Assembly: GCA_036344075.1 (NCBI GenBank)
Contig: JAYYUJ010000008.1
Coordinates: 27,730 to 91,729 of the forward strand
Length of the DNA: 64,000 nt
Source of the DNA: Pseudomonadota bacterium
Lineage (GTDB): Bacteria; Pseudomonadota; Gammaproteobacteria; Pseudomonadales; UBA7434
Direction: 5' to 3'
The stretch's first letter is position 1. Every line of letters begins with the position of its first letter. Shown here in pieces: positions 9,469-35,209 of the stretch. The translations under genes were made by a program, and so were the position numbers. The notes beneath the pieces were generated by a model. The model made no database searches, was not told the origin of the DNA, and was given only the letters and a program-made list of their open reading frames with translations.

Positions 9469-10317
9469 ATGCGAAATAAACTGTTTATTATTCTTCAATA
9501 TTGCTTACCCCAACATATATTGTCACGCTTAGTGGGACTGCTTGCAGACAGCGAAAGACCCTGGCTCAAGCGGAAATTAATTGCTTTATTCAGCCAGCAT
9601 TTTGATATCAACATCGCAGAAGCCATGCCGGCTGATTATGAAAAGTATAAAAGTTTCAACGCCTTTTTTACTCGACCGTTAAAGCCCGGTGCTAGAATCA
9701 TAGATCCAGCTGACAATGCCATTACCTCACCTGCAGACGGTGCGATTAGTGAAATAGGCTATCTCAATGCCGATCGTCTAATCCAAGCTAAAGGTCAGCA
9801 TTACTCTCTGCTTGCATTACTTGGCGGCGATCAGGCACTGGCTAAACCATTTAATAATGGAGCCTTTGCAACAATCTACTTGTCGCCAAAAGATTATCAT
9901 CGGGTACACATGCCCTTTGCAGGACAATTAGAAAAAACATGTTATATTCCAGGAAAGCTATTTTCAGTTAATCAAGTTACAGCTAATCATGTCCCCGGAC
10001 TATTTTCAAAAAATGAACGTTTAGTGTGTTATTTCTCTACCGATTATGGCCCGATGGTCATCATTTTAGTTGGCGCAATGATTGTTGCCGGTATTGAGAC
10101 AACTTGGTCTGGCCAAGTAACGCCAAAATCAAAAACCATTAACTCCATCGATATCAAACAAAATATTTCTCTATTCAAAGGGCAAGAAATGGGCCGCTTT
10201 AAGTTAGGCTCCACGGCAATCGTATTATTGCCTGCCAATAAAGCCAAATGGAAGACAAACCTAATGAATGGGTCTGCCGTAAGAATGGGGCAAACATTAG
10301 GGGAATTTAACTGCTAA
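9469..10317 (+). CDS. psd: Phosphatidylserine decarboxylase proenzyme
   Basis: The N-terminus LQYCLPQHILSRLVG and the self-cleavage motif LGST (FKLGSTAIV) are both present; the product is 282 aa. Confidence 0.93.
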   Translation: MRNKLFIILQYCLPQHILSRLVGLLADSERPWLKRKLIALFSQHFDINIAEAMPADYEKYKSFNAFFTRPLKPGARIIDPADNAITSPADGAISEIGYLNADRLIQAKGQHYSLLALLGGDQALAKPFNNGAFATIYLSPKDYHRVHMPFAGQLEKTCYIPGKLFSVNQVTANHVPGLFSKNERLVCYFSTDYGPMVIILVGAMIVAGIETTWSGQVTPKSKTINSIDIKQNISLFKGQEMGRFKLGSTAIVLLPANKAKWKTNLMNGSAVRMGQTLGEFNC

Positions 10318-23290: not shown

Positions 23291-24624
23291 ATGTCTGCTC
23301 AATCATCCACTCATTACCCCGTTTGGACTCACCGTTGGACCTATATTTTAGCCACCACTGGCGCCGCAGTTGGGCTGGGTAATATTTGGAAATTTCCTTA
23401 TATTGCTGGCGAAAATGGCGGCGGCGCCTTTGTTCTCATGTATCTGATCTGCATTATGATGTTTGGCGTGCCAATTATGATGGCTGAGGTACTGCTTGGT
23501 CGAAAAGGTCGCGCCAACCCAGTGCACGCCATGCTGTCGCAGGCACGTGCCGCCGGCGCCAGTAAGCTGTGGGCATTTATTGGTCTGATGGGCGTGGCCG
23601 CCGGGATCATGATTCTCATGTATTACAGCGTGGTGGCTGGCTGGTCGCTAGAATATGTGTTTCAAAGTGCCAGTTCAGCCTATATCGGTCAAGACGCCCA
23701 AATTATCGCTGACAGATTCGGCTATTTAGCCCAAGATAGCGACCGGCAACTGCTATGGCATAGCGTCTTTATTCTTGCCACGGCAACAATTGTTGGACTT
23801 GGGGTTACACGTGGCATTGGCAATGCCGTGAATATTTTAATGCCCATTTTATTTGCTTTGCTTTTGCTCTTGCTATGGTACGCCTTCAAAAACGGCGAGT
23901 TTCAGAAGGGCTTAAATTTTATGTTTGCCGCTGATTTTAGCAAACTGACCAGTCAATCGGTGTTAACCGCCATGGGCCATGCTTTTTTTACCCTTAGCTT
24001 AGGCATGGGAACCGTCATGGTGTACGGCTCTTATATGTCAAACGATCAATCAATTTCAAACGCAGTGATCGTTGTTGCCGGGCTAGATACGTTGATCGCC
24101 TTAATTGCCGGCATGGCTATTTTTCCACTAGTGTTTGCCAGTGGTCTGGCGCCAGGCTCTGGGCCAGGCTTATTATTTGAAACGCTGCCTATTGCCTTTT
24201 CAGGCATGTGGGGCGGTACCTTCTTTGGAACAGGATTTTTTGTTTTAGTTGCAATTGCAGCGTTAAGCTCATCGATCTCACTCATCGAGCCCGGTATCGC
24301 ATGGCTAGAAAAGCTCGGCAGTTCGCGCTTGTTGGCACTGTCGGTCTAAGCATATTATGCTGGCTAGGCGGTGTGGCAAGTATTTACTCGAGCGAGGTCT
24401 TTAATCGCTTGGACTATTTAACTGCCAATATTATGTTACCGCTAGGCGGGCTTTTAATTGCGCTGTTTGTGGGTTGGAAGGTCGGCTATACCCGGGTGCG
24501 TAAAGAGATCGATGGCTTATCGACTGGCTTATTTAACCTATGGTTTATTAGCTTGCGTTTTATCGCTCCGGCCGGCGTTTTAGTCATCTTCTATCAAGGT
24601 ATTAAAGCCAGTCTAGGTAGCTAA
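23291..24624 (+). pseudogene. Na+-dependent transporter, SNF/NSS family, interrupted by a frameshift
   Basis: The NSS signature GLGNIWKFPYIAGENGGGAF is at the N-terminus. The reading frame ends at 24349, while the C-terminal TM segments continue in another frame (ORF 24208-24624). The frames switch near GAAAAGCT at about 24308-24320. Confidence 0.7.
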
Positions 24625-28124: not shown

Positions 28125-29003
28125 TTAAGGCCCGCTCATAATTAAAATCCCAGCCGCCGGCAGGGCGGCCGAGCGATCAATCACACTATTAGGAACTGTC
28201 AACGCACCAATTGCTACACCACATTCATCGGCCACTAAACCATTATTTAACAGTACCTTCACCGGTGGTGAGTCAATGTATTTTTGTTGTTCACTGTTGC
28301 CGGCGACCGTATCAGAAAATAATTGCATCTCAATCAAATATGCCCCTACGGTGGGTGAACCGGTGTGACCAATGCCGGGAACGGTACAGTCGCCCATGAC
28401 GCCTTCAGAATTTTTTCCTTCAAGACAAAAATCAAGATGGGCATGAATAGCATCACCTGAGGTCACGCCCGCCGCCTGTTCTATAGGGGCCTCTAATGGG
28501 CCTTCAACCCCTGCACCTGACCAAATTGTACCCTCTGCATAAAAAGCATTCTCTTCAGCCGTGCCATTAATCACAACATCGGGTGGTATTGCACCAAAAT
28601 AACGAACCCGCTCGCCGTTAGGTGAATCATCTAGCCAACGTTGCTCATCTTTATCCCAAAAACGTAGCGAGCCAAGTGCGCGAAACCACAGCACCTCACC
28701 ACCGAGGAAATCCCCTGCCTTAACCACCCAACCAGGATCATCGGTTTTATGCGGACCGCCAGCAAAATCACCAAAATCGGCCGGCACAACCGTTCTACCA
28801 GTGCTCGCTTCGGATGGAAACTGACCGCTCTCATCAATCAGTAGTGAGCCGCCGTCTGTTCCAGCGGGATCAACATCGATGATAACATCAAAATGGCCGA
28901 AAGCATTACAGGTCGTAATCCCTTGTGCATAACTCTTTAGCACCGCCGTTGATAAAAACAGGCAGCTCACAAGTGTTAAATTGATGCCGTATTTATTAAT
29001 CAT
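28125..29003 (-). CDS. Secreted protein, paralogue 1 of an unrecognised family (H-x-H-L-D-F motif); last gene of the TBDR operon
   Basis: A signal peptide (MINKYGINLTLVSCLFLSTAVLKSYA/QG) follows the ATG at 29003, one nt after the receptor stop (TAAtATG). It shares ordered motifs with the products of 32928-33704 and 33834-34526 (ADFGDF, KTDDPGW, ALGSLRFWD..W, IHAHLDF, GAYLIEM, NNG). The ORF-track start at 29024 is probably an over-extension. Confidence 0.8.
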   Translation of the reverse strand: MINKYGINLTLVSCLFLSTAVLKSYAQGITTCNAFGHFDVIIDVDPAGTDGGSLLIDESGQFPSEASTGRTVVPADFGDFAGGPHKTDDPGWVVKAGDFLGGEVLWFRALGSLRFWDKDEQRWLDDSPNGERVRYFGAIPPDVVINGTAEENAFYAEGTIWSGAGVEGPLEAPIEQAAGVTSGDAIHAHLDFCLEGKNSEGVMGDCTVPGIGHTGSPTVGAYLIEMQLFSDTVAGNSEQQKYIDSPPVKVLLNNGLVADECGVAIGALTVPNSVIDRSAALPAAGILIMSGP

Positions 29004-29004
29004 A

Positions 29005-31314
29005 TTAAAATTGATACCGAACACCGAACACTATTTCTCTGCCAGGCTCTGGGGTAAAGTTTCTTAAAAAAGACGTTGATTTTCGAATATCTTCATCCAA
29101 TAAATTTTTCATCTGTAAAAAAACAATCATTTCTTGATGAAAGGGACCGTCAAAATGAAGAATGTAAGACGCATAGGCATTGAGTAGCTTATAGGCATCT
29201 GTTGGTACTTCATTATCGCCAATATTTTTCTGTGCAGCGACAAAATTGTAACGCAACTCCGAATAGAAGAGGCCGTTCCCCCACTGAAAGCCAAGCCCTC
29301 TGCGGGCCGGCGGCATCCTCGGTAAGTCCTCGCTGCCGGTCAGCCTTCCTCGAACATGATCAGCAAATAACTCTATTTGAAATTCACCACCTCGAACGTC
29401 GATAGGCGGTAATGTCCACTGCCATTCATAACCGGTCAGCGTTGCATCATGCTGCTGATAATCAAAGACAGCAATGCATTCTTCTAATCGAACACAGGCA
29501 TTACGGAAAACGTTATCAGAGGTATCAAACAATCCATTGATCGCTCTTTTTTTTTGATAAATAAAATCATCTGCTTCGGTATAAAAGATGGCGCTGCTCA
29601 TATCACCAAAAGCACCTTGCCACTCCCAGCGCAAATCAATGCCCTGAAACTTTTCAGCCTCAGGTGGAGAATCATTCAATTGACTATCAAACAGCAATAA
29701 GCCGATATCATATGAACGTGTCGCCAAGTGTGGGCCTAGTGAGAGTAATTCTTGTATTTCAGGCACTCGCTGTGCCGAATTTAATCCAAATACTAAACGC
29801 TGTTGATCGGATACATCCACGCTTAACGCTGAGGAAAAAGTATAGCTTTGATAGCTAATCGGCTCATGCATAAACTGGGTATTGTAGGGCAATAATCCAG
29901 CAGTTAACTGTCGCTGTAATATCTCTTGCCACTCATAGCGACAACCTAACTCAAACAGGCCTATGGCTAATGGAAATTGATCATAGAAGAAAACACCGAT
30001 CGAGCGCTGATCCGCTGCTGGAATAAAATCCTCACCGCCACCTAGTGAGCGCATATTCTCTGCAGAAAACGCGCGATCTACCCACTGTAGCCCCATCTTG
30101 CCGCTATGCTGTGTGTTAAAACGATGCAGTAAGTGATGATTGATTTCAGCTTTAACTTCAAACACATCATTGATAAACCGAGTGCCGTTTATAAATTTTT
30201 TTGTTACTGGGTCTTGCTCAAACTCAAGGTGCTGATATTTAATGTTTCCTATCGTTAAGCGTACGTCTTTTAAGCTAGGATTACTAATCTTATAACCGAA
30301 CTTAAATAGATGACGCTCCTGCTCCAAATCGATACGAACTCTCGACTGAATCACAATATTTTCGCCAACGGGGTGGCTATGACTGTGCCCCGGCGAATCC
30401 GCTGGCTCGGTATGCGCACCTGGCGGGATGCCATACTCACTGTTAATCATCGTGCTTGAACCGCCAATAAAAAAATCATCATCGACATAACTTAACGCCA
30501 ATGAACCGCTATCGGTATCTGAATCCGTATTTAATACCGTGCCAAAAGTATTATCCGAATTGCTGATAGCAAATACTTGCTCGATAGCCTGCTCTTCAAT
30601 GGCTAGCGCAGGAATGCTCATATCTTCAGCGCTTCTCGTAAAGCCATCAACCTGAAAAACCCACTTTCCCATTTCGGTTTTAAGCTTAGAAATGGCAGTT
30701 TCACGATGATGGTCGTTGTTTAATTCTTTTCTAAGCTCGAAGACTGAAGACAAAGATTGATTATCTAAGGCTTCAGCAATTCGCCCATTAAGCACCTCAA
30801 CCGTGCCACCCACCGCATTATTCCCATGCAAAACCGTCGCAGGACCTTTGAGTACCTGAATACTTTTAGCCAAGGCCGGCTCTATCGCCGTCGCATGATC
30901 AGGACTAATAGAGGAAGCATCCCAAGCTCCGACACCATCTTCACTAAGACGCACACGTACACCAGAGAGACCGCGCAATACAGGCAGACCAACGCCTGGG
31001 CCATAAGAAGCATTGTGCACCCCCAGTTCATTGGCCAACGTATCACCTAAAGTACCGCCTTGTTTACTGAGCAGTTCATCATCCGACAGCTCAATCGTAC
31101 TCAAACCTAAAGCCGTTTTTTGCTCTTGCTTTTGAGCATTAATCGTCACTTCTTCCATCGCGTTTTCAGCGGTCGTCATTGAAGAAAAAAAAGCGGCAAT
31201 GCAAATAGCAATGGATACACCATGGCTTAATCGCGGCGGTAGAAATGAAAGTGAGAAGATCTGCTCTAGTTGGATATTCGGCATAAGCATTGGACTCAAA
31301 ATAGTGCTCGACAA
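29005..31314 (-). CDS. TonB-dependent outer-membrane receptor with His-rich loop (ZnuD-like by context)
   Basis: A signal peptide is followed by a plug region (EEVTINA..., LRGLSG, VLKGPATVLHGNNAVGG) and a C-terminal beta-barrel ending in the terminal Phe (GVRYQF). There is an internal HTEPADSPGHSHSHP segment. The start may be one of the internal Met codons (31290 or 31284), which would remove the overlap with the upstream gene. Confidence 0.9.
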   Translation of the reverse strand: MSSTILSPMLMPNIQLEQIFSLSFLPPRLSHGVSIAICIAAFFSSMTTAENAMEEVTINAQKQEQKTALGLSTIELSDDELLSKQGGTLGDTLANELGVHNASYGPGVGLPVLRGLSGVRVRLSEDGVGAWDASSISPDHATAIEPALAKSIQVLKGPATVLHGNNAVGGTVEVLNGRIAEALDNQSLSSVFELRKELNNDHHRETAISKLKTEMGKWVFQVDGFTRSAEDMSIPALAIEEQAIEQVFAISNSDNTFGTVLNTDSDTDSGSLALSYVDDDFFIGGSSTMINSEYGIPPGAHTEPADSPGHSHSHPVGENIVIQSRVRIDLEQERHLFKFGYKISNPSLKDVRLTIGNIKYQHLEFEQDPVTKKFINGTRFINDVFEVKAEINHHLLHRFNTQHSGKMGLQWVDRAFSAENMRSLGGGEDFIPAADQRSIGVFFYDQFPLAIGLFELGCRYEWQEILQRQLTAGLLPYNTQFMHEPISYQSYTFSSALSVDVSDQQRLVFGLNSAQRVPEIQELLSLGPHLATRSYDIGLLLFDSQLNDSPPEAEKFQGIDLRWEWQGAFGDMSSAIFYTEADDFIYQKKRAINGLFDTSDNVFRNACVRLEECIAVFDYQQHDATLTGYEWQWTLPPIDVRGGEFQIELFADHVRGRLTGSEDLPRMPPARRGLGFQWGNGLFYSELRYNFVAAQKNIGDNEVPTDAYKLLNAYASYILHFDGPFHQEMIVFLQMKNLLDEDIRKSTSFLRNFTPEPGREIVFGVRYQF

Positions 31315-32891
31315 TTAGATCTAAAATCTAAGGCCTGAGTATAGTCATAGCCTATGGAGACACCATTACGACCGGCTAGCAATGCGGGCGATTCGACTGA
31401 TAATCGAAAGTCATTATTTAATTGGTTAATAAACAAGGGGTCAGTATTTTTTTGCGAATCGACATCCGGCCTAGTGCTGAGCTGAGGATGAGATTCAACA
31501 TTTTGCCAATTATCCATATCTCGAAAAACATCTTCTAATGGGCCGCCTGCATCTAATCGCCAGCTCAGATAATCTGCTGGCGCAAAATATAAATTATAAT
31601 CACTGTACGCAATACTGTTTTCTAATGAAGAGTTTTCCGGCGACCGTGTCACCAATAGATTCACGTCAAATCCCTCTAAGGTTGGATGAAAGATATTATT
31701 AAATATCTCAACATTTTTTACCCCCGAAATATCAATCACAATCGAAGCAGTATCAATGAAATTATTATTGAATAAACAGAATGATTCTGACTGGTATTCA
31801 CTGCCTCCTAGATCAAGCAAAATCGCAGAATCCGCTTTTTCAGAGTCTTCAGGCATACGAAATAAATTACCCGACACATCTACAGACTTGAATAGCCCTG
31901 TTTTAATTTCATCATTTGCTGAGGTATCGCTTATTTGGTTATGGAAGTTAACGGGCTGTTTGACTTGCGTGAAATTATTATTATGTATTTGAATATTCGC
32001 TACGGGCTCTTCAATATTGAGCGAATACGCAGGACTACCCAACCCCTGCGCATTAATAATGACGCCACTGTCTAAATTGGTAAATGTATTACCATCGATC
32101 ACGATGTTAGACAAGCCGCGGCCAGTTCTAATCAATTCATTCTCTTCGTTGGATAACTGGCTAAAGACATCGCTAATTTCATTATTCCGAATGACTGTAT
32201 CACTGACCCCCATTAGCCGAATACCGCCAACATACTTTTCTCCATAAACGTGATGGATACGGTTGCCCTCTAAGGTGATATTGTTAGTTTCGCAGGCGCC
32301 GTTGACTGAACTACTTATGCCGGCCTCATTAACCTTTGTAATTTCGATATTACGTACAATGATGTGACTCACACAGTCTAACAGCAAGCCCAAGGTGATA
32401 TCATTCCTGTTACTCGCAAAGCTTTCTTGCTGCTGATTAATCACAGGCCGTGAAGTGACATCACCCTCAATAATAATAGGTGCAGAGATTGTGCCGCTGT
32501 TCGTTACCCGGTATCCGCGGAGTTTTTTTAAAAGAACGCCATCAGCATCGAATACCTGCTTAATAATATTATCAGTATGGTAAGGATGCCCTTCATTGTG
32601 TTGGACCACTAGCACATCGCCAGGTCTCAGTTGATCCAGTGCGTATTGAAGCGATTGAAAGGGCAAAGTGATGCCGTCGTTAGTATCGTCACCACTGACA
32701 TTATTGACGAATAATCTGGCGCCAGTTACCGGGCCGCCTGAATTCACTACGGTCTGTGTGCCGCCGCTGACATCGCCTCCACAACCACTCAAGATAACCG
32801 CAGGCAGGATTAAAGCTCCTATCATTAAGGCCCAAATAGCCTTTCTAAAACAAGTCTTGATTATTCGATAAATAGCAGATGGAGTCATCAC
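31296..32891 (-). CDS. Right-handed parallel beta-helix repeat lipoprotein
   Basis: The lipoprotein signal peptide carries the lipobox ILSGC. The N-terminal pattern is FVNNVSGDDTNDG..PFQSLQYALDQLRPGD. Recurring beta-helix-type repeats follow (GNRIHHV, RNNEISDV, DGNTFTNL, HNNNFTQV, FNNNFID). Confidence 0.8.
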   Translation of the reverse strand: MMTPSAIYRIIKTCFRKAIWALMIGALILPAVILSGCGGDVSGGTQTVVNSGGPVTGARLFVNNVSGDDTNDGITLPFQSLQYALDQLRPGDVLVVQHNEGHPYHTDNIIKQVFDADGVLLKKLRGYRVTNSGTISAPIIIEGDVTSRPVINQQQESFASNRNDITLGLLLDCVSHIIVRNIEITKVNEAGISSSVNGACETNNITLEGNRIHHVYGEKYVGGIRLMGVSDTVIRNNEISDVFSQLSNEENELIRTGRGLSNIVIDGNTFTNLDSGVIINAQGLGSPAYSLNIEEPVANIQIHNNNFTQVKQPVNFHNQISDTSANDEIKTGLFKSVDVSGNLFRMPEDSEKADSAILLDLGGSEYQSESFCLFNNNFIDTASIVIDISGVKNVEIFNNIFHPTLEGFDVNLLVTRSPENSSLENSIAYSDYNLYFAPADYLSWRLDAGGPLEDVFRDMDNWQNVESHPQLSTRPDVDSQKNTDPLFINQLNNDFRLSVESPALLAGRNGVSIGYDYTQALDFRSNCRALF

Positions 32892-32927
32892 AGTTTTTAA
32901 TGCCTGGCCTAATAAAGAGTAACGAAG

Positions 32928-33704
32928 CTACCTTACTATAGATTTACGCGTCTTCTCGTAGTAAGCAAAAATAAACAGTAAACTCGCTAATAGAAATAAT
33001 GCGCCATTCGGCATGGGAACAGCAACAGCCTCTGGCTCTGGCTCTGGCTCTGGCTGAGACGTGAGTGCATTAATGGCTTGAGCAAAGGCAGCCTCACTCA
33101 TTTGATAATTGAATGCAATTCGCACAGGCTCTGAGGTTAAGTGGGTCTCAATAGTGCCACCAGGTGTATCGGTCCCAAAAAACTCTATATCAATCATATA
33201 GGCGCCAATTGTAGGATCGCCTGAGCCTAGATTTTCGATAAAGAAATCTATGTGCTGGTGTAAAGAGCCATTGCCATTAATTTGAGCAATAGCGCCCAGT
33301 GGATTGCTAACGCCTGAGTCAGTGATGATCGAATAGGAATACACCACATCTCGAATTTTCACTCTTTCCTGATCAGCTACCTCGTTAACCCATGCTTGAC
33401 CATTCCAAAACCACAACGAGCCCACTACACGGTAGTAAAGAAAGCTATTTGGGCTAAAAGTGTTAGTCAATGACTGGAAACCAGGCTGATCAGTTTTATT
33501 TGGATCACTAAAAGATCCAAAAGTATTTGGAAATAAAGACTTTCCTGTTGTTAAGTCAGTGATGATAGGGATATTGGTTTCAGAATTTATTTCGCTTGCT
33601 GCCACCTGGTTATCAACCAATGTAAGCCATATGTCGGCATGTTGAGCATTACTTAACGGCACGAGGCTGACAAAAAATGCCATTGCAAACAATGAAATCT
33701 TCAT
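32928..33704 (-). CDS. Secreted protein, paralogue 2 of the unrecognised family, with (PE)4 linker and PEP-CTERM-like tail
   Basis: The signal peptide MKISLFAMAFFVSLVPLSNA/Q follows the ATG at 33704. Family motifs are present (NKTDQPGF, VGSLWFWNGQAW, LHQHIDF, GAYMIDI). The C-terminus is VPMPNGALFLLASLLFIFAYYEKTRK. The ORF-track extension to 33818 would translate through a terminator hairpin. Confidence 0.8.
   Translation of the reverse strand: MKISLFAMAFFVSLVPLSNAQHADIWLTLVDNQVAASEINSETNIPIITDLTTGKSLFPNTFGSFSDPNKTDQPGFQSLTNTFSPNSFLYYRVVGSLWFWNGQAWVNEVADQERVKIRDVVYSYSIITDSGVSNPLGAIAQINGNGSLHQHIDFFIENLGSGDPTIGAYMIDIEFFGTDTPGGTIETHLTSEPVRIAFNYQMSEAAFAQAINALTSQPEPEPEPEAVAVPMPNGALFLLASLLFIFAYYEKTRKSIVR
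33032..33055 (-). repeat. Hexanucleotide tandem repeat (CTGGCT)x4 encoding a (PE)n linker
   Basis: Four perfect tandem CTGGCT units read on the minus strand as QPEPEPEPEA, immediately before the C-terminal anchor of paralogue 2. Confidence 0.9.
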
Positions 33705-33750
33705 GAATTTGAGAAAATTTTTTGACACTTCTTTACCAATAGATTCAAGA

Positions 33751-33790
33751 AATAAAGAAAAAACCCGAAGCACAATACTTCGGGTTTTTA
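33751..33790 (-). terminator. Rho-independent terminator after the His-rich protein gene
   Basis: The minus strand reads AAACCCGAAG-tattgtg-CTTCGGGTTT followed by TTTTTCTTTATT: a 10-bp GC-containing stem with a T tract, about 45 nt after the TAG at 33834-33836. Confidence 0.8.
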
Positions 33791-33833
33791 TTCTAGCCGC
33801 AATCGCTAAAGAGATCACGCTTTCAAGGTGCTA

Positions 33834-34526
33834 CTAGGCTTTAAGACGGCGTCCTAGTAATAAAGAACCTAAACCAGAAGCTAGGAATAACCAAGCCGCT
33901 GGTATTGGAACTGCTGATACCGGACCAGCGTCGAAGGATGCCTCATCCATACCATTGTTAAAAACGATGAAGATAGATTCAGAAGACCAACCATTAGCTG
34001 ATGACAACGCTTGATCAGAGTAACCCTCGAGAATAAATTCAATTAAGAAGGCCTGGGCTGACGCACTTGGATCAATGAAAAATTCAAGGTGCTCATGAAC
34101 ACCACCTTCATCATCTGACATGCCAATTAGACCCAAAGAAAAAGGTTGTACTCCATAATCATGGCTTTCTAGTGTTAGTAAACTGTTAGTTGAGGCAGTC
34201 CAGCTAGAGCCATCCCATTCTTTGAGGTTGCTTTGCATATTGTAAGCAAGGTAATTGTATGCCCCAAATGGGCCATCTTCTAGAATAATACCAGGCTCAT
34301 CTGTCCCGTATGCACCAAGCTCGAAATCGTTAAAGTCTGCCTCAAATAATTTAGCTTCGCCTGCTAAAGCTTCGCCTGTTTCAACGTGTATTTCAAAGCC
34401 TGTCTCAGCTGCAGAAATAATATCGCCTCCATGACCTTCATGGCCGCCATGCCCATGATCGTCTTCTTCAGCATTTGCTGAAAAAGCCAATACAGAAAAC
34501 AGGCCTAGTAGAAGTAAATTTTTCAT
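33834..34526 (-). CDS. Secreted His-rich protein, paralogue 3 of the unrecognised family, with VPLPA-CTERM-like anchor
   Basis: The signal peptide is MKNLLLLGLFSVLAFSANA/EE. The mature N-terminus is EEDDHGHGGHEGHGGD. Family motifs are present (GTDEPG, VHEHLEF, AFLIEF, NNG). The C-terminus is VPIPAAWLFLASGLGSLLLGRRLKA. GGAGA sits upstream of the ATG. Confidence 0.85.
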   Translation of the reverse strand: MKNLLLLGLFSVLAFSANAEEDDHGHGGHEGHGGDIISAAETGFEIHVETGEALAGEAKLFEADFNDFELGAYGTDEPGIILEDGPFGAYNYLAYNMQSNLKEWDGSSWTASTNSLLTLESHDYGVQPFSLGLIGMSDDEGGVHEHLEFFIDPSASAQAFLIEFILEGYSDQALSSANGWSSESIFIVFNNGMDEASFDAGPVSAVPIPAAWLFLASGLGSLLLGRRLKA

Positions 34527-34587: not shown

Positions 34588-34618
34588 AATGATACAACAT
34601 ATCATTTGGGTGTTTCAA
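34588..34618 (-). promoter_or_regulatory. Zur-box-like palindrome overlapping a sigma-70-type promoter of the His-rich protein gene
   Basis: The minus strand reads TTGAAA-(18 nt)-TATCAT. The dyad AATGATA-tgttg-TATCATT (34588-34606) covers the spacer and the -10. It matches about 16 of 21 positions of the gammaproteobacterial Zur consensus (AAATGTTATAnTATAACATTT) as I recall it. It lies 62-80 nt upstream of the ATG, and zur is the next gene upstream. Confidence 0.6.
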
Positions 34619-34747: not shown

Positions 34748-35209
34748 TTATTTTTGACACTTGCCGCACAAACCGTGCAACTCAAGCTGTTGATTATGCA
34801 TTGAAAAACCGGATTTCAGTATATCAGCCCTCAACTGCTCCAAAGTATGCTTTTGGATTCCGGCCTCGGACACCGACTGACAATTATCACAAATAAGAAA
34901 TTGAGGTAAATCATGCGCATGATTGCAGTTGATGTGCTCGCAAGCCGTGTATTTATTAACCGAATTTAATCGGTGAGCGAGCGTTTCTTCAACCAGAAAA
35001 TTCAGCATGCGATAGGCCGACATCGCGGTAAGCGACTCACTGTATCGCGCATGATACAAGTCGATCAACTCATAGGCCGATACCGGTGATGGAGCCTCTA
35101 ATAGCAAGGCCAATGCTCGTTTACGTTTTACAGTCAACCTCACACCAGCATCGCGGCATATCAACTCGGCATTTTGCAAAGTCTTATCAGTTGCAGCGGA
35201 TTGATTCAT
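34748..35209 (-). CDS. zur: Zinc uptake regulator (Fur family)
   Basis: The 153-aa product is collinear with E. coli Zur (AE.IC...GVRLT..R...L.LL, SAY.L.DL, Y..C, FLICD.C, HGLCG.C), including the C-x-x-C pairs. Confidence 0.85.
   Translation of the reverse strand: MNQSAATDKTLQNAELICRDAGVRLTVKRKRALALLLEAPSPVSAYELIDLYHARYSESLTAMSAYRMLNFLVEETLAHRLNSVNKYTACEHINCNHAHDLPQFLICDNCQSVSEAGIQKHTLEQLRADILKSGFSMHNQQLELHGLCGKCQK

Follow-up and report, generated by a model that had tools for sequence, protein, structure and literature searches.

A candidate zinc-capture protein with a histidine-rich tip, encoded beside a ZnuD-like receptor in marine Cellvibrionales

We analyzed a stretch of 64,000 nucleotides from a Pseudomonadota bacterium (GenBank assembly GCA_036344075.1, contig JAYYUJ010000008.1, positions 27,730 to 91,729). 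This whole stretch is referred to below as the window, and coordinates are positions within it unless a related locus (L) is named. Our subject is gene A, which is predicted to encode an exported protein with a histidine-rich tract at its mature N-terminus. It forms part of a cassette with the order Zur (putative), A, terminator, B, beta-helix lipoprotein, ZnuD-like receptor and E that is conserved in marine Cellvibrionales. We consider it rather probable that gene A specifies a Zur-repressed, Sec-exported, histidine-tipped zinc-capture protein that feeds the ZnuD-like receptor. The features of the gene and its product are as follows.

33834 to 34526, minus strand: open reading frame (ORF) of gene A, 230 amino acids
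34537 to 34540, minus strand: ribosome-binding site GGAG, 10 nt ahead of the ATG, read from the sequence
34470 to 34526, minus strand: predicted signal peptide, residues 1 to 19, cut after A-N-A; read from the sequence, kept in orthologues and a separate helix in the structural model
34434 to 34469, minus strand: variable acidic His-Gly prefix EEDDHGHGGHEG, residues 20 to 31, delimited by model confidence, indels and its presence in 28/134 relatives
34422 to 34433, minus strand: family-wide motif H32-G-G-D35, followed by I36, at the start of strand 1; from conservation
33918 to 34421, minus strand: predicted beta-sandwich core, residues 36 to 203, with P78-G79 and W104; from the AlphaFold2 model and conservation
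34089 to 34097, minus strand: H144-E-H146, candidate metal ligand pair; conserved, and invariant in paralogues A, B and E
33837 to 33911, minus strand: putative C-terminal sorting tail VPIPAAWLFLASGLGSLLLGRRLKA of the VPLPA/PEP-CTERM type, below the TIGR03370 cutoff

Residues 1 to 19 (MKNLLLLGLFSVLAFSANA) comprise an n-region with lysine, a hydrophobic core and A-N-A at positions -3/-1, and read as a textbook Sec signal with a predicted cut after A-N-A. Directly after this predicted cleavage site, residues 20 to 35 are EEDDHGHGGHEGHGGD (nt 34469-34422). Histidines occupy positions 24, 26, 29, 32, 47, 122, 144 and 146, and the processed protein (residues 20 to 205) has a calculated mass of ~19.9 kDa and an isoelectric point of ~4.0, with 36 acidic residues, 2 basic residues and no cysteine. 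The AlphaFold2 model, obtained with a 50-sequence alignment, had a mean predicted local distance difference test score (pLDDT) of 86.9 and a predicted template modeling score of 0.79. It depicts the core as a confident all-beta fold, with pLDDT values of 91 to 97 for most of it and 83 to 87 at residues 111 to 130. Values were below 50 at residues 18 to 25 and 27 to 32, and the model thus renders the prefix as disordered. The core matched no Pfam or NCBIfam family, its 50 relatives gave tail-only matches, and sequence profiles retrieved no relative from the PDB. Foldseek searches with two models of the protein returned generic pilin/Ig-like sandwiches only (template modeling scores of 0.3 to 0.5), and no structural family was assigned.

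An earlier, sequence-only reading of this DNA had placed the His tract right after an AxA signal-peptide site, and the residues and nucleotide coordinates it gave agree with ours. It had counted five histidines; the tract holds four (H24, H26, H29 and H32), which is why a scan for 5 His in 16 residues did not pick it. A stretch with 4 His in 9 residues occurs in this tract alone among the 52 long ORFs of the window, and residue shuffles yielded on average 0.49 such stretches, so that composition by itself proves little. The significance of the tract derives from its position after the cleavage site, from the invariance of H24, H26 and D35 in 15 gene A orthologues, and from the recurrence of a His-rich prefix (at least 3 His in the 22 residues ahead of the Asp) at the same place in 28/134 family representatives. 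The same reading had treated the tract as one unit in a zinc context. The context held, but the unit divides into two parts: only H32-x-x-D35 is family-wide, and the prefix appears to be a lineage-variable, disordered add-on, the length of which varies through indels among close orthologues. H32-x-x-D35 and H144-x-H146 probably form part of one core site. The tract had also been left unlinked to the C-terminal sorting tail and to two paralogues, both of which needed to be added.

To define the family, 1.84 billion representative proteins were searched for relatives of gene A. This retrieved 145 representative clusters at E <= 0.001, 43 of them at E <= 1e-10. Most of these proteins are 220 to 270 residues in length, with a single conserved domain between the signal peptide and a sorting tail at the C-terminus. 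Of 134 relatives that were aligned, 131 retained D35, and 125 had a histidine 2 or 3 residues ahead of it; the family-wide form of this motif is H-x(1-2)-D-[IV], which opens the first beta-strand. P78 was present in all 134 sequences, G79 in 133 and W104 in 115. The second His-containing motif was near-invariant, with H144 in 125 sequences (Asp in the other 9) and H146 in 132; between them, family members have E, S, T or Q. Alignments of diverse members contained no conserved stretch of 7 to 10 columns. A search for related loci with an orthologue alignment found Cellvibrionales/Pseudomonadales metagenome-assembled genomes (MAGs) only, along with one weak tail-level match in a Yonathbacteria MAG. 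By the Pfam and NCBIfam models the family is unnamed, and the literature on PEP-CTERM proteins with zinc and TonB-dependent receptors, and on VPLPA-CTERM, yielded nothing on it.

The C-terminus of the gene A product, VPIPAA-WLFLASGLGSLLLG-RRLKA, consists of a proline motif, a hydrophobic helix and a basic cluster at the extreme end. This layout points to a signal of the PEP-CTERM/VPLPA-CTERM type that lies below the model threshold. Among 50 homologues at E <= 0.01, TIGR03370 (VPLPA-CTERM) matched 17 (best 1.5e-9) and TIGR02595 (PEP-CTERM) matched 14 (best 6e-7); a few relatives carry dockerin-type ends in place of the PEP-CTERM tail. The products of A and B are the only proteins of the window with such sorting tails, and the tails of B and E matched neither TIGR02595 nor TIGR03370. 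As a separate observation, a 681-residue Planctomycetota protein (MEE2718285.1, from a MAG) contains three tandem copies of the gene A domain and a dockerin-type end, not a PEP-CTERM tail, which indicates that the domain is used with alternative anchors.

The other genes of the cassette are listed below.

34748 to 35209, minus strand: Fur-family regulator, most likely Zur (Pfam FUR, 9.3e-10), directly upstream of A in every full cassette
32928 to 33704, minus strand: paralogue B, with mature N-terminus QHADIW, PE-repeat linker and diverged tail; from BLASTP and alignment
31296 to 32891, minus strand: right-handed beta-helix protein with lipobox (ILSGC; Pfam Beta_helix, 2.5e-6), present in all full cassettes
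29005 to 31314, minus strand: ZnuD-like TonB-dependent receptor, with plug and barrel domains
28125 to 29024, minus strand: paralogue E, with the gene A domain, no complete sorting tail and the motif GHFDVI; from alignment

The best NCBIfam match of the regulator was Zur PRK11639 (93 bits, below the cutoff of 167 bits), whereas the Fur and PerR models gave at most 40 bits; we thus regard it as most likely Zur. The receptor scored 218 bits on the ZnuD model NF038289, against a cutoff of 950, which was still its best family match. Its best match in the PDB was ZnuD 4RDR (1.9e-28), and it is accordingly classed here as ZnuD-like rather than as ZnuD. Two stretches of this receptor have 4 His in 16 residues, namely GAHTEPADSPGHSHSH (residues 299 to 314, nt 30370-30417) and KAEINHHLLHRFNTQH (residues 388 to 403, nt 30103-30150). 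Orthologues of the lipoprotein are annotated as Pel9A-like_beta_helix.

Paralogue B shares 27% identity with A (BLASTP, E = 9e-12). All three paralogues, A, B and E, keep the H-x-D-[IV], TDxPG, Trp and HxH motifs in the alignment, and the His-rich prefix is present in A only. Ahead of its tail, the product of B contains a Pro-Glu repeat linker (PEPEPEPE, nt 33021-33056), which draws spurious 30-nt matches from unrelated RNA contigs.

The cassette order recurs in several MAGs of Cellvibrionales/Pseudomonadales; one of these is a complete chromosome of 2.98 Mb, on which other genes flank the cassette. Eleven loci had usable flanks: 10 of them showed a ZnuD-like receptor a few genes away at most, and 8 showed a Fur-family gene. 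The distant loci L014 and L015 possess a reduced core, made up of an A/B-like protein, a receptor 34 to 42% identical to that of the window and an E-like protein; the E type is thus conserved beside the receptor even there (53% identity in L014). Divergence within the cassette was uneven. Between L005 (10001-16468) and the window (28125-34526), identities were 87% for Zur, 46% for A, 44% for B, 67% for the lipoprotein, 90% for the receptor and 79% for E. Fast divergence of the tail-bearing A and B is the pattern expected for exposed proteins under diversifying pressure.

Three regulatory features accompany gene A.

34589 to 34618, minus strand: predicted sigma-70-like promoter TTGAAA-18 nt-TATCAT, a consensus match only (10/12, the top-ranking site of the consensus scan)
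34588 to 34606, minus strand: Zur-box-like palindrome AATGATATGTTGTATCATT over the -10 element, from footprinting
33759 to 33789, minus strand: intrinsic terminator or attenuator hairpin after A, with 14 pairs and a T-run

The palindrome occurs once in the window at up to 3 mismatches. In an intergenic alignment of 4 loci, the box stood out as 18 consecutive invariant columns within divergent DNA, and it was also present upstream of further A homologues (19/19 positions in L007, 18/19 in L009 and 17/19 in L012). A weaker box in L014 (14/19) was counted apart from the seven near-identical loci. Phylogenetic footprinting thus identifies a putative Zur-binding site over the gene A promoter, and no second Zur box or promoter was found for genes B to E inside the cassette. 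An equivalent of the hairpin after A exists in three other lineages (L001, L005 and L004); that of L004 is formed from unrelated sequence, which argues for selection on structure.

Two further intergenic regions differ from that of the window. The Zur-A intergenic region of L005 (~9800-9850) contains a (GTCTCA)n microsatellite of ~8 units upstream of the Zur box, which is absent from the window. In L015 (3530-3600), the locus of a distant member, the divergent receptor/A-like intergenic region lacks the AT-rich Zur box and in its place has GCAAC-N3-4-GTTGC palindromes, three in number, which suggests a different regulator or box type.

Transcript data were obtained from four seawater metatranscriptomes, in which short contigs (150 to 172 nt, 96 to 97% identity) fell on 34032-34238 within gene A and none came from Zur or from B to E; the receptor gene occurred in no RNA run. 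Contig matches at 33026-33055 were dismissed as low-complexity, since they fall on the PE repeat of gene B. The sequence-only reading had described gene A as the sole gene directly behind the Zur-box promoter and as having its own terminator, and both statements agree with the single box overlapping the -10 of the predicted promoter and with the hairpin. It had further proposed that the gene A product is the most abundant component of the system. The conserved terminator, the A-only RNA contigs and the lack of RNA runs with the receptor gene back this proposal weakly, and the RNA fragments are likewise weakly consistent with the highest expression in the locus being that of gene A.

Considering this context, we compared gene A with zepA (all3515) of Anabaena PCC 7120. 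Among extracellular zinc scavengers that are proteins with a PEP-CTERM tail, ZepA, reported in 2024, is the sole described example. Its gene is repressed by Zur, and the protein, which carries a Sec signal and the PEP-CTERM tail, occurs in the exoproteome and binds ~1.5 Zn per monomer (Sarasa-Buisan et al., PLoS Biol 2024; PMC10957091). ZepA further features a conserved site of three His, and its mature N-terminus, which contains His and acidic residues, is unstructured; the authors compared this N-terminus with those of ZinT and ZnuA. In Proteobacteria, zepA lies near genes for TonB-dependent transporters and a Fur-family gene (PMC10957091). The predicted layout of the gene A product matches that of ZepA: a Sec signal, a flexible mature N-terminus enriched in histidine and acidic residues, a body folded as a beta-sandwich and a tail of the PEP-CTERM type, and both proteins possess a conserved His cluster. 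They also share a Zur box over the promoter and the proximity of a Fur-family gene and a TonB-dependent transporter, which for ZepA applies to Proteobacteria. However, ZepA has two domains and ~235 mature residues, whereas the gene A product has one domain and ~186. The zinc motif of ZepA, H-X2-9-H-[FY]-H near the N-terminus, is absent from the gene A product, which has H-E-H at 144-146 with no His 2 to 9 residues upstream, in addition to H32 and D35. Unlike zepA, gene A is one of three paralogues (A, B and E) that form, together with the beta-helix lipoprotein gene, a fixed cassette with the receptor.

Homology between the two was assessed with the ZepA sequence taken from S2 Fig of PMC10957091 and with profiles of 50 gene A relatives and 22 ZepA homologues. 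BLASTP of gene A against ZepA gave no significant alignment. The full-length profiles matched with a probability of 97%, yet the match was confined to the tail and the two final strands. After removal of signal peptides and tails, hhalign returned a probability of 3.5 to 3.8% and an E value of ~0.01, with a score of 22.7 versus at most 17.6 in 20 column shuffles. Neither gene A nor any of the 50 relatives matched the NCBIfam model "all3515 family Zur-repressed PEP-CTERM protein". Membership of gene A in the ZepA family was therefore rejected, as the full-length match was tail-driven and no core homology was detected once the tail was removed. On all contextual criteria gene A is like ZepA, and by profile comparison it is not a demonstrable member of the ZepA family; a very distant kinship of the two beta-sandwiches is conceivable. 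Gene A thus looks like a second, sequence-distinct counterpart of ZepA.

The resemblance to ZinT and ZnuA, which was drawn in PMC10957091 and, for ZnuA, in the sequence-only reading, concerns a flexible His-rich segment beside a defined zinc site, and Zur control. Membership in the ZnuA (PF01297) or ZinT (PF09223) family was rejected, because gene A matched no Pfam family at E <= 0.1. ZinT and ZnuA have a lipocalin-like or cluster-9 binding-protein fold and an ABC importer as partner, whereas the gene A product is a predicted beta-sandwich with a C-terminal sorting tail and an outer-membrane receptor as its likely partner. With respect to the receptor, ZnuD of Neisseria meningitidis (4RDR) is nearest to the cassette protein among solved structures and NCBIfam models, and the cassette receptor has His-rich stretches. 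ZnuD is not known to rely on accessory surface proteins dedicated to it; the cassette receptor, in contrast, is always encoded with two or three paralogous His/Asp beta-sandwich proteins. A more distant parallel is provided by the streptococcal polyhistidine-triad (Pht) proteins, which are surface-exposed and zinc-regulated, carry His motifs and have been proposed to supply an uptake system with zinc. They belong to Gram-positive bacteria, however, have HxxHxH repeats and are unrelated to gene A in sequence and anchor.

The zinc context proposed in the sequence-only reading is strongly supported, given a regulator nearest to Zur, a box that is near-invariant in seven loci, a receptor nearest to ZnuD and the precedent of ZepA; by context and by the published analogue, a zinc interpretation is well supported. 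Under this interpretation, Zur would occupy the box over the -10 element when zinc is plentiful and shut the operon. When zinc is scarce, Zur would leave the box and gene A would be strongly transcribed. The hairpin after A would stop most transcripts, and a fraction would read through into B, the lipoprotein gene, the receptor gene and E; as this hairpin is conserved, A would be made in excess over the receptor genes. The single beta-sandwich would probably bind Zn(II) at a proposed tetrahedral site to which H32 and D35, where the first strand begins, and H144 and H146 would contribute, a likely ligand set deduced from conservation. The 12-residue disordered prefix EEDDHGHGGHEG would probably serve as a flexible "fishing line" of low affinity that concentrates zinc locally around the core site, a role also proposed for the His-rich N-terminal segments of ZepA, ZinT and ZnuA. 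Given the VPxPAA-helix-RR tail of the PEP-CTERM/VPLPA-CTERM type, processing is expected, and the protein would be displayed on, or released from, the cell envelope. The holo-protein may then dock with, or pass zinc to, the ZnuD-like TonB-dependent receptor, whose gene is the third downstream of A, and paralogues B and E and the beta-helix lipoprotein may be further parts of the same apparatus. What the data show are the sequence features and their conservation, the gene order, the box, the hairpin and RNA fragments of A in seawater; zinc binding, the ligating residues, the location of the protein, its hand-off to the receptor and the stoichiometry in this scheme are what we infer.

Several observations weigh against this scheme. 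The gene A tail scored 14.7 bits on TIGR03370 (E = 0.023), below the cutoff of 25.35, and no polytopic exosortase-like ORF was found within the 64-kb window. The RNA contigs are few and of low depth, come from a relative of 96 to 97% identity and possibly reflect DNA carry-over, and zero depth elsewhere does not amount to absence. The prefix is dispensable for the core function of the family, since 70/134 members have one single His ahead of the Asp. Lastly, two distant relatives (P0065 and P0096) adjoin DUF2946 genes (L016, 1395-1778, and L017, 5788-6165), which presumably accompany copper receptors, so that metal specificity may differ across the family.

The first two of these points also speak for a different location. 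In that case the tail would escape cleavage and keep its helix in the inner membrane, RRLK facing the cytoplasm, and the protein would be a periplasmic carrier, similar to ZinT or ZnuA, that passes receptor-imported zinc to an inner-membrane importer. Sec export followed by a C-terminal helix and a basic cluster would give this topology by default, and such a carrier would fill a missing function, as the cassette encodes neither an inner-membrane transporter nor a periplasmic binding protein. Homologues with canonical PEP-CTERM/VPLPA-CTERM or dockerin-type tails nevertheless point to an extracytoplasmic surface location, and ZepA, which has the same layout, sits in the exoproteome. Moreover, A and B diverge much faster than the receptor in the L005 comparison, as exposed proteins often do. 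We regard a periplasmic carrier, the main alternative, as unlikely.

The variability of the prefix raises another possibility, namely that it is an incidental low-complexity spacer and that the conserved core alone binds any metal. Its absence from most of the family, the indels among close orthologues and a composition that is not statistically exceptional would fit a spacer. Against this, H24 and H26 are invariant in the 15 orthologues, many separate branches evolved a His-rich prefix at this same position, and the alternation of His and acidic residues resembles the zinc-binding N-termini cited for ZepA, ZinT and ZnuA. A mere spacer appears somewhat less probable still than a periplasmic carrier, and capture by the prefix is retained in our interpretation.

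A different ligand (Cu, Ni, Co, a small metallophore or a glycan processed by the beta-helix lipoprotein), with Zur control as the sign of an indirect role, is the least probable of the three alternatives: the conserved His as first or second mature residue of many members recalls amino-terminal copper sites, DUF2946 genes adjoin the two distant members, and a Pel9A-like beta-helix protein, with a fold typical of polysaccharide lyases, is fixed in the cassette, but the prefix ahead of this His in gene A and 28 other representatives means that a free amino group is no conserved ligand, and regulator, box and receptor all point to zinc in the gene A clade.

Little is understood of how free-living marine bacteria supply their ZnuD-type receptors when zinc is at picomolar to nanomolar levels. 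The zinc-capture reading of the gene A locus points to a second family that follows the logic of ZepA with a different core and metal motif, and whose members accompany ZnuD-like receptors at almost all loci examined. It would also link exosortase-type sorting to metal acquisition in a second lineage. In a broader and more tentative proposal, which we hold to be possible though short of an even chance, A and its paralogues would represent a second, independently evolved class of protein "zincophores", made up of His/Asp/His-x-His beta-sandwiches in which A and B have exosortase-type tails and E is tail-less. Together with the beta-helix lipoprotein they would form an extracellular zinc relay to and through the ZnuD-like receptor, with the His-Gly-acidic tip on an over-expressed A as the outermost capture element, and this class would be widespread in marine Cellvibrionales and occur also in Planctomycetota. 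The locus offers concrete residues (H32, D35, H144, H146 and the prefix 20-31) and partners (the receptor, B, E and the beta-helix lipoprotein) for such a system.

Some minor observations concern distant loci and the surroundings of the cassette. In L016, two pairs of a receptor and a family member flank a Fur-family gene, whereas L017 has no receptor within 7 kb and contains a prepilin-type N_methyl protein. Elsewhere in the window (23291-24624, plus strand), an SNF (sodium:neurotransmitter-symporter) gene is seemingly split into overlapping ORFs of 352 and 138 amino acids, whereas its relatives in L001 and L005 are one gene of 444 amino acids; the split could reflect a frameshift, a pseudogene or an assembly error.

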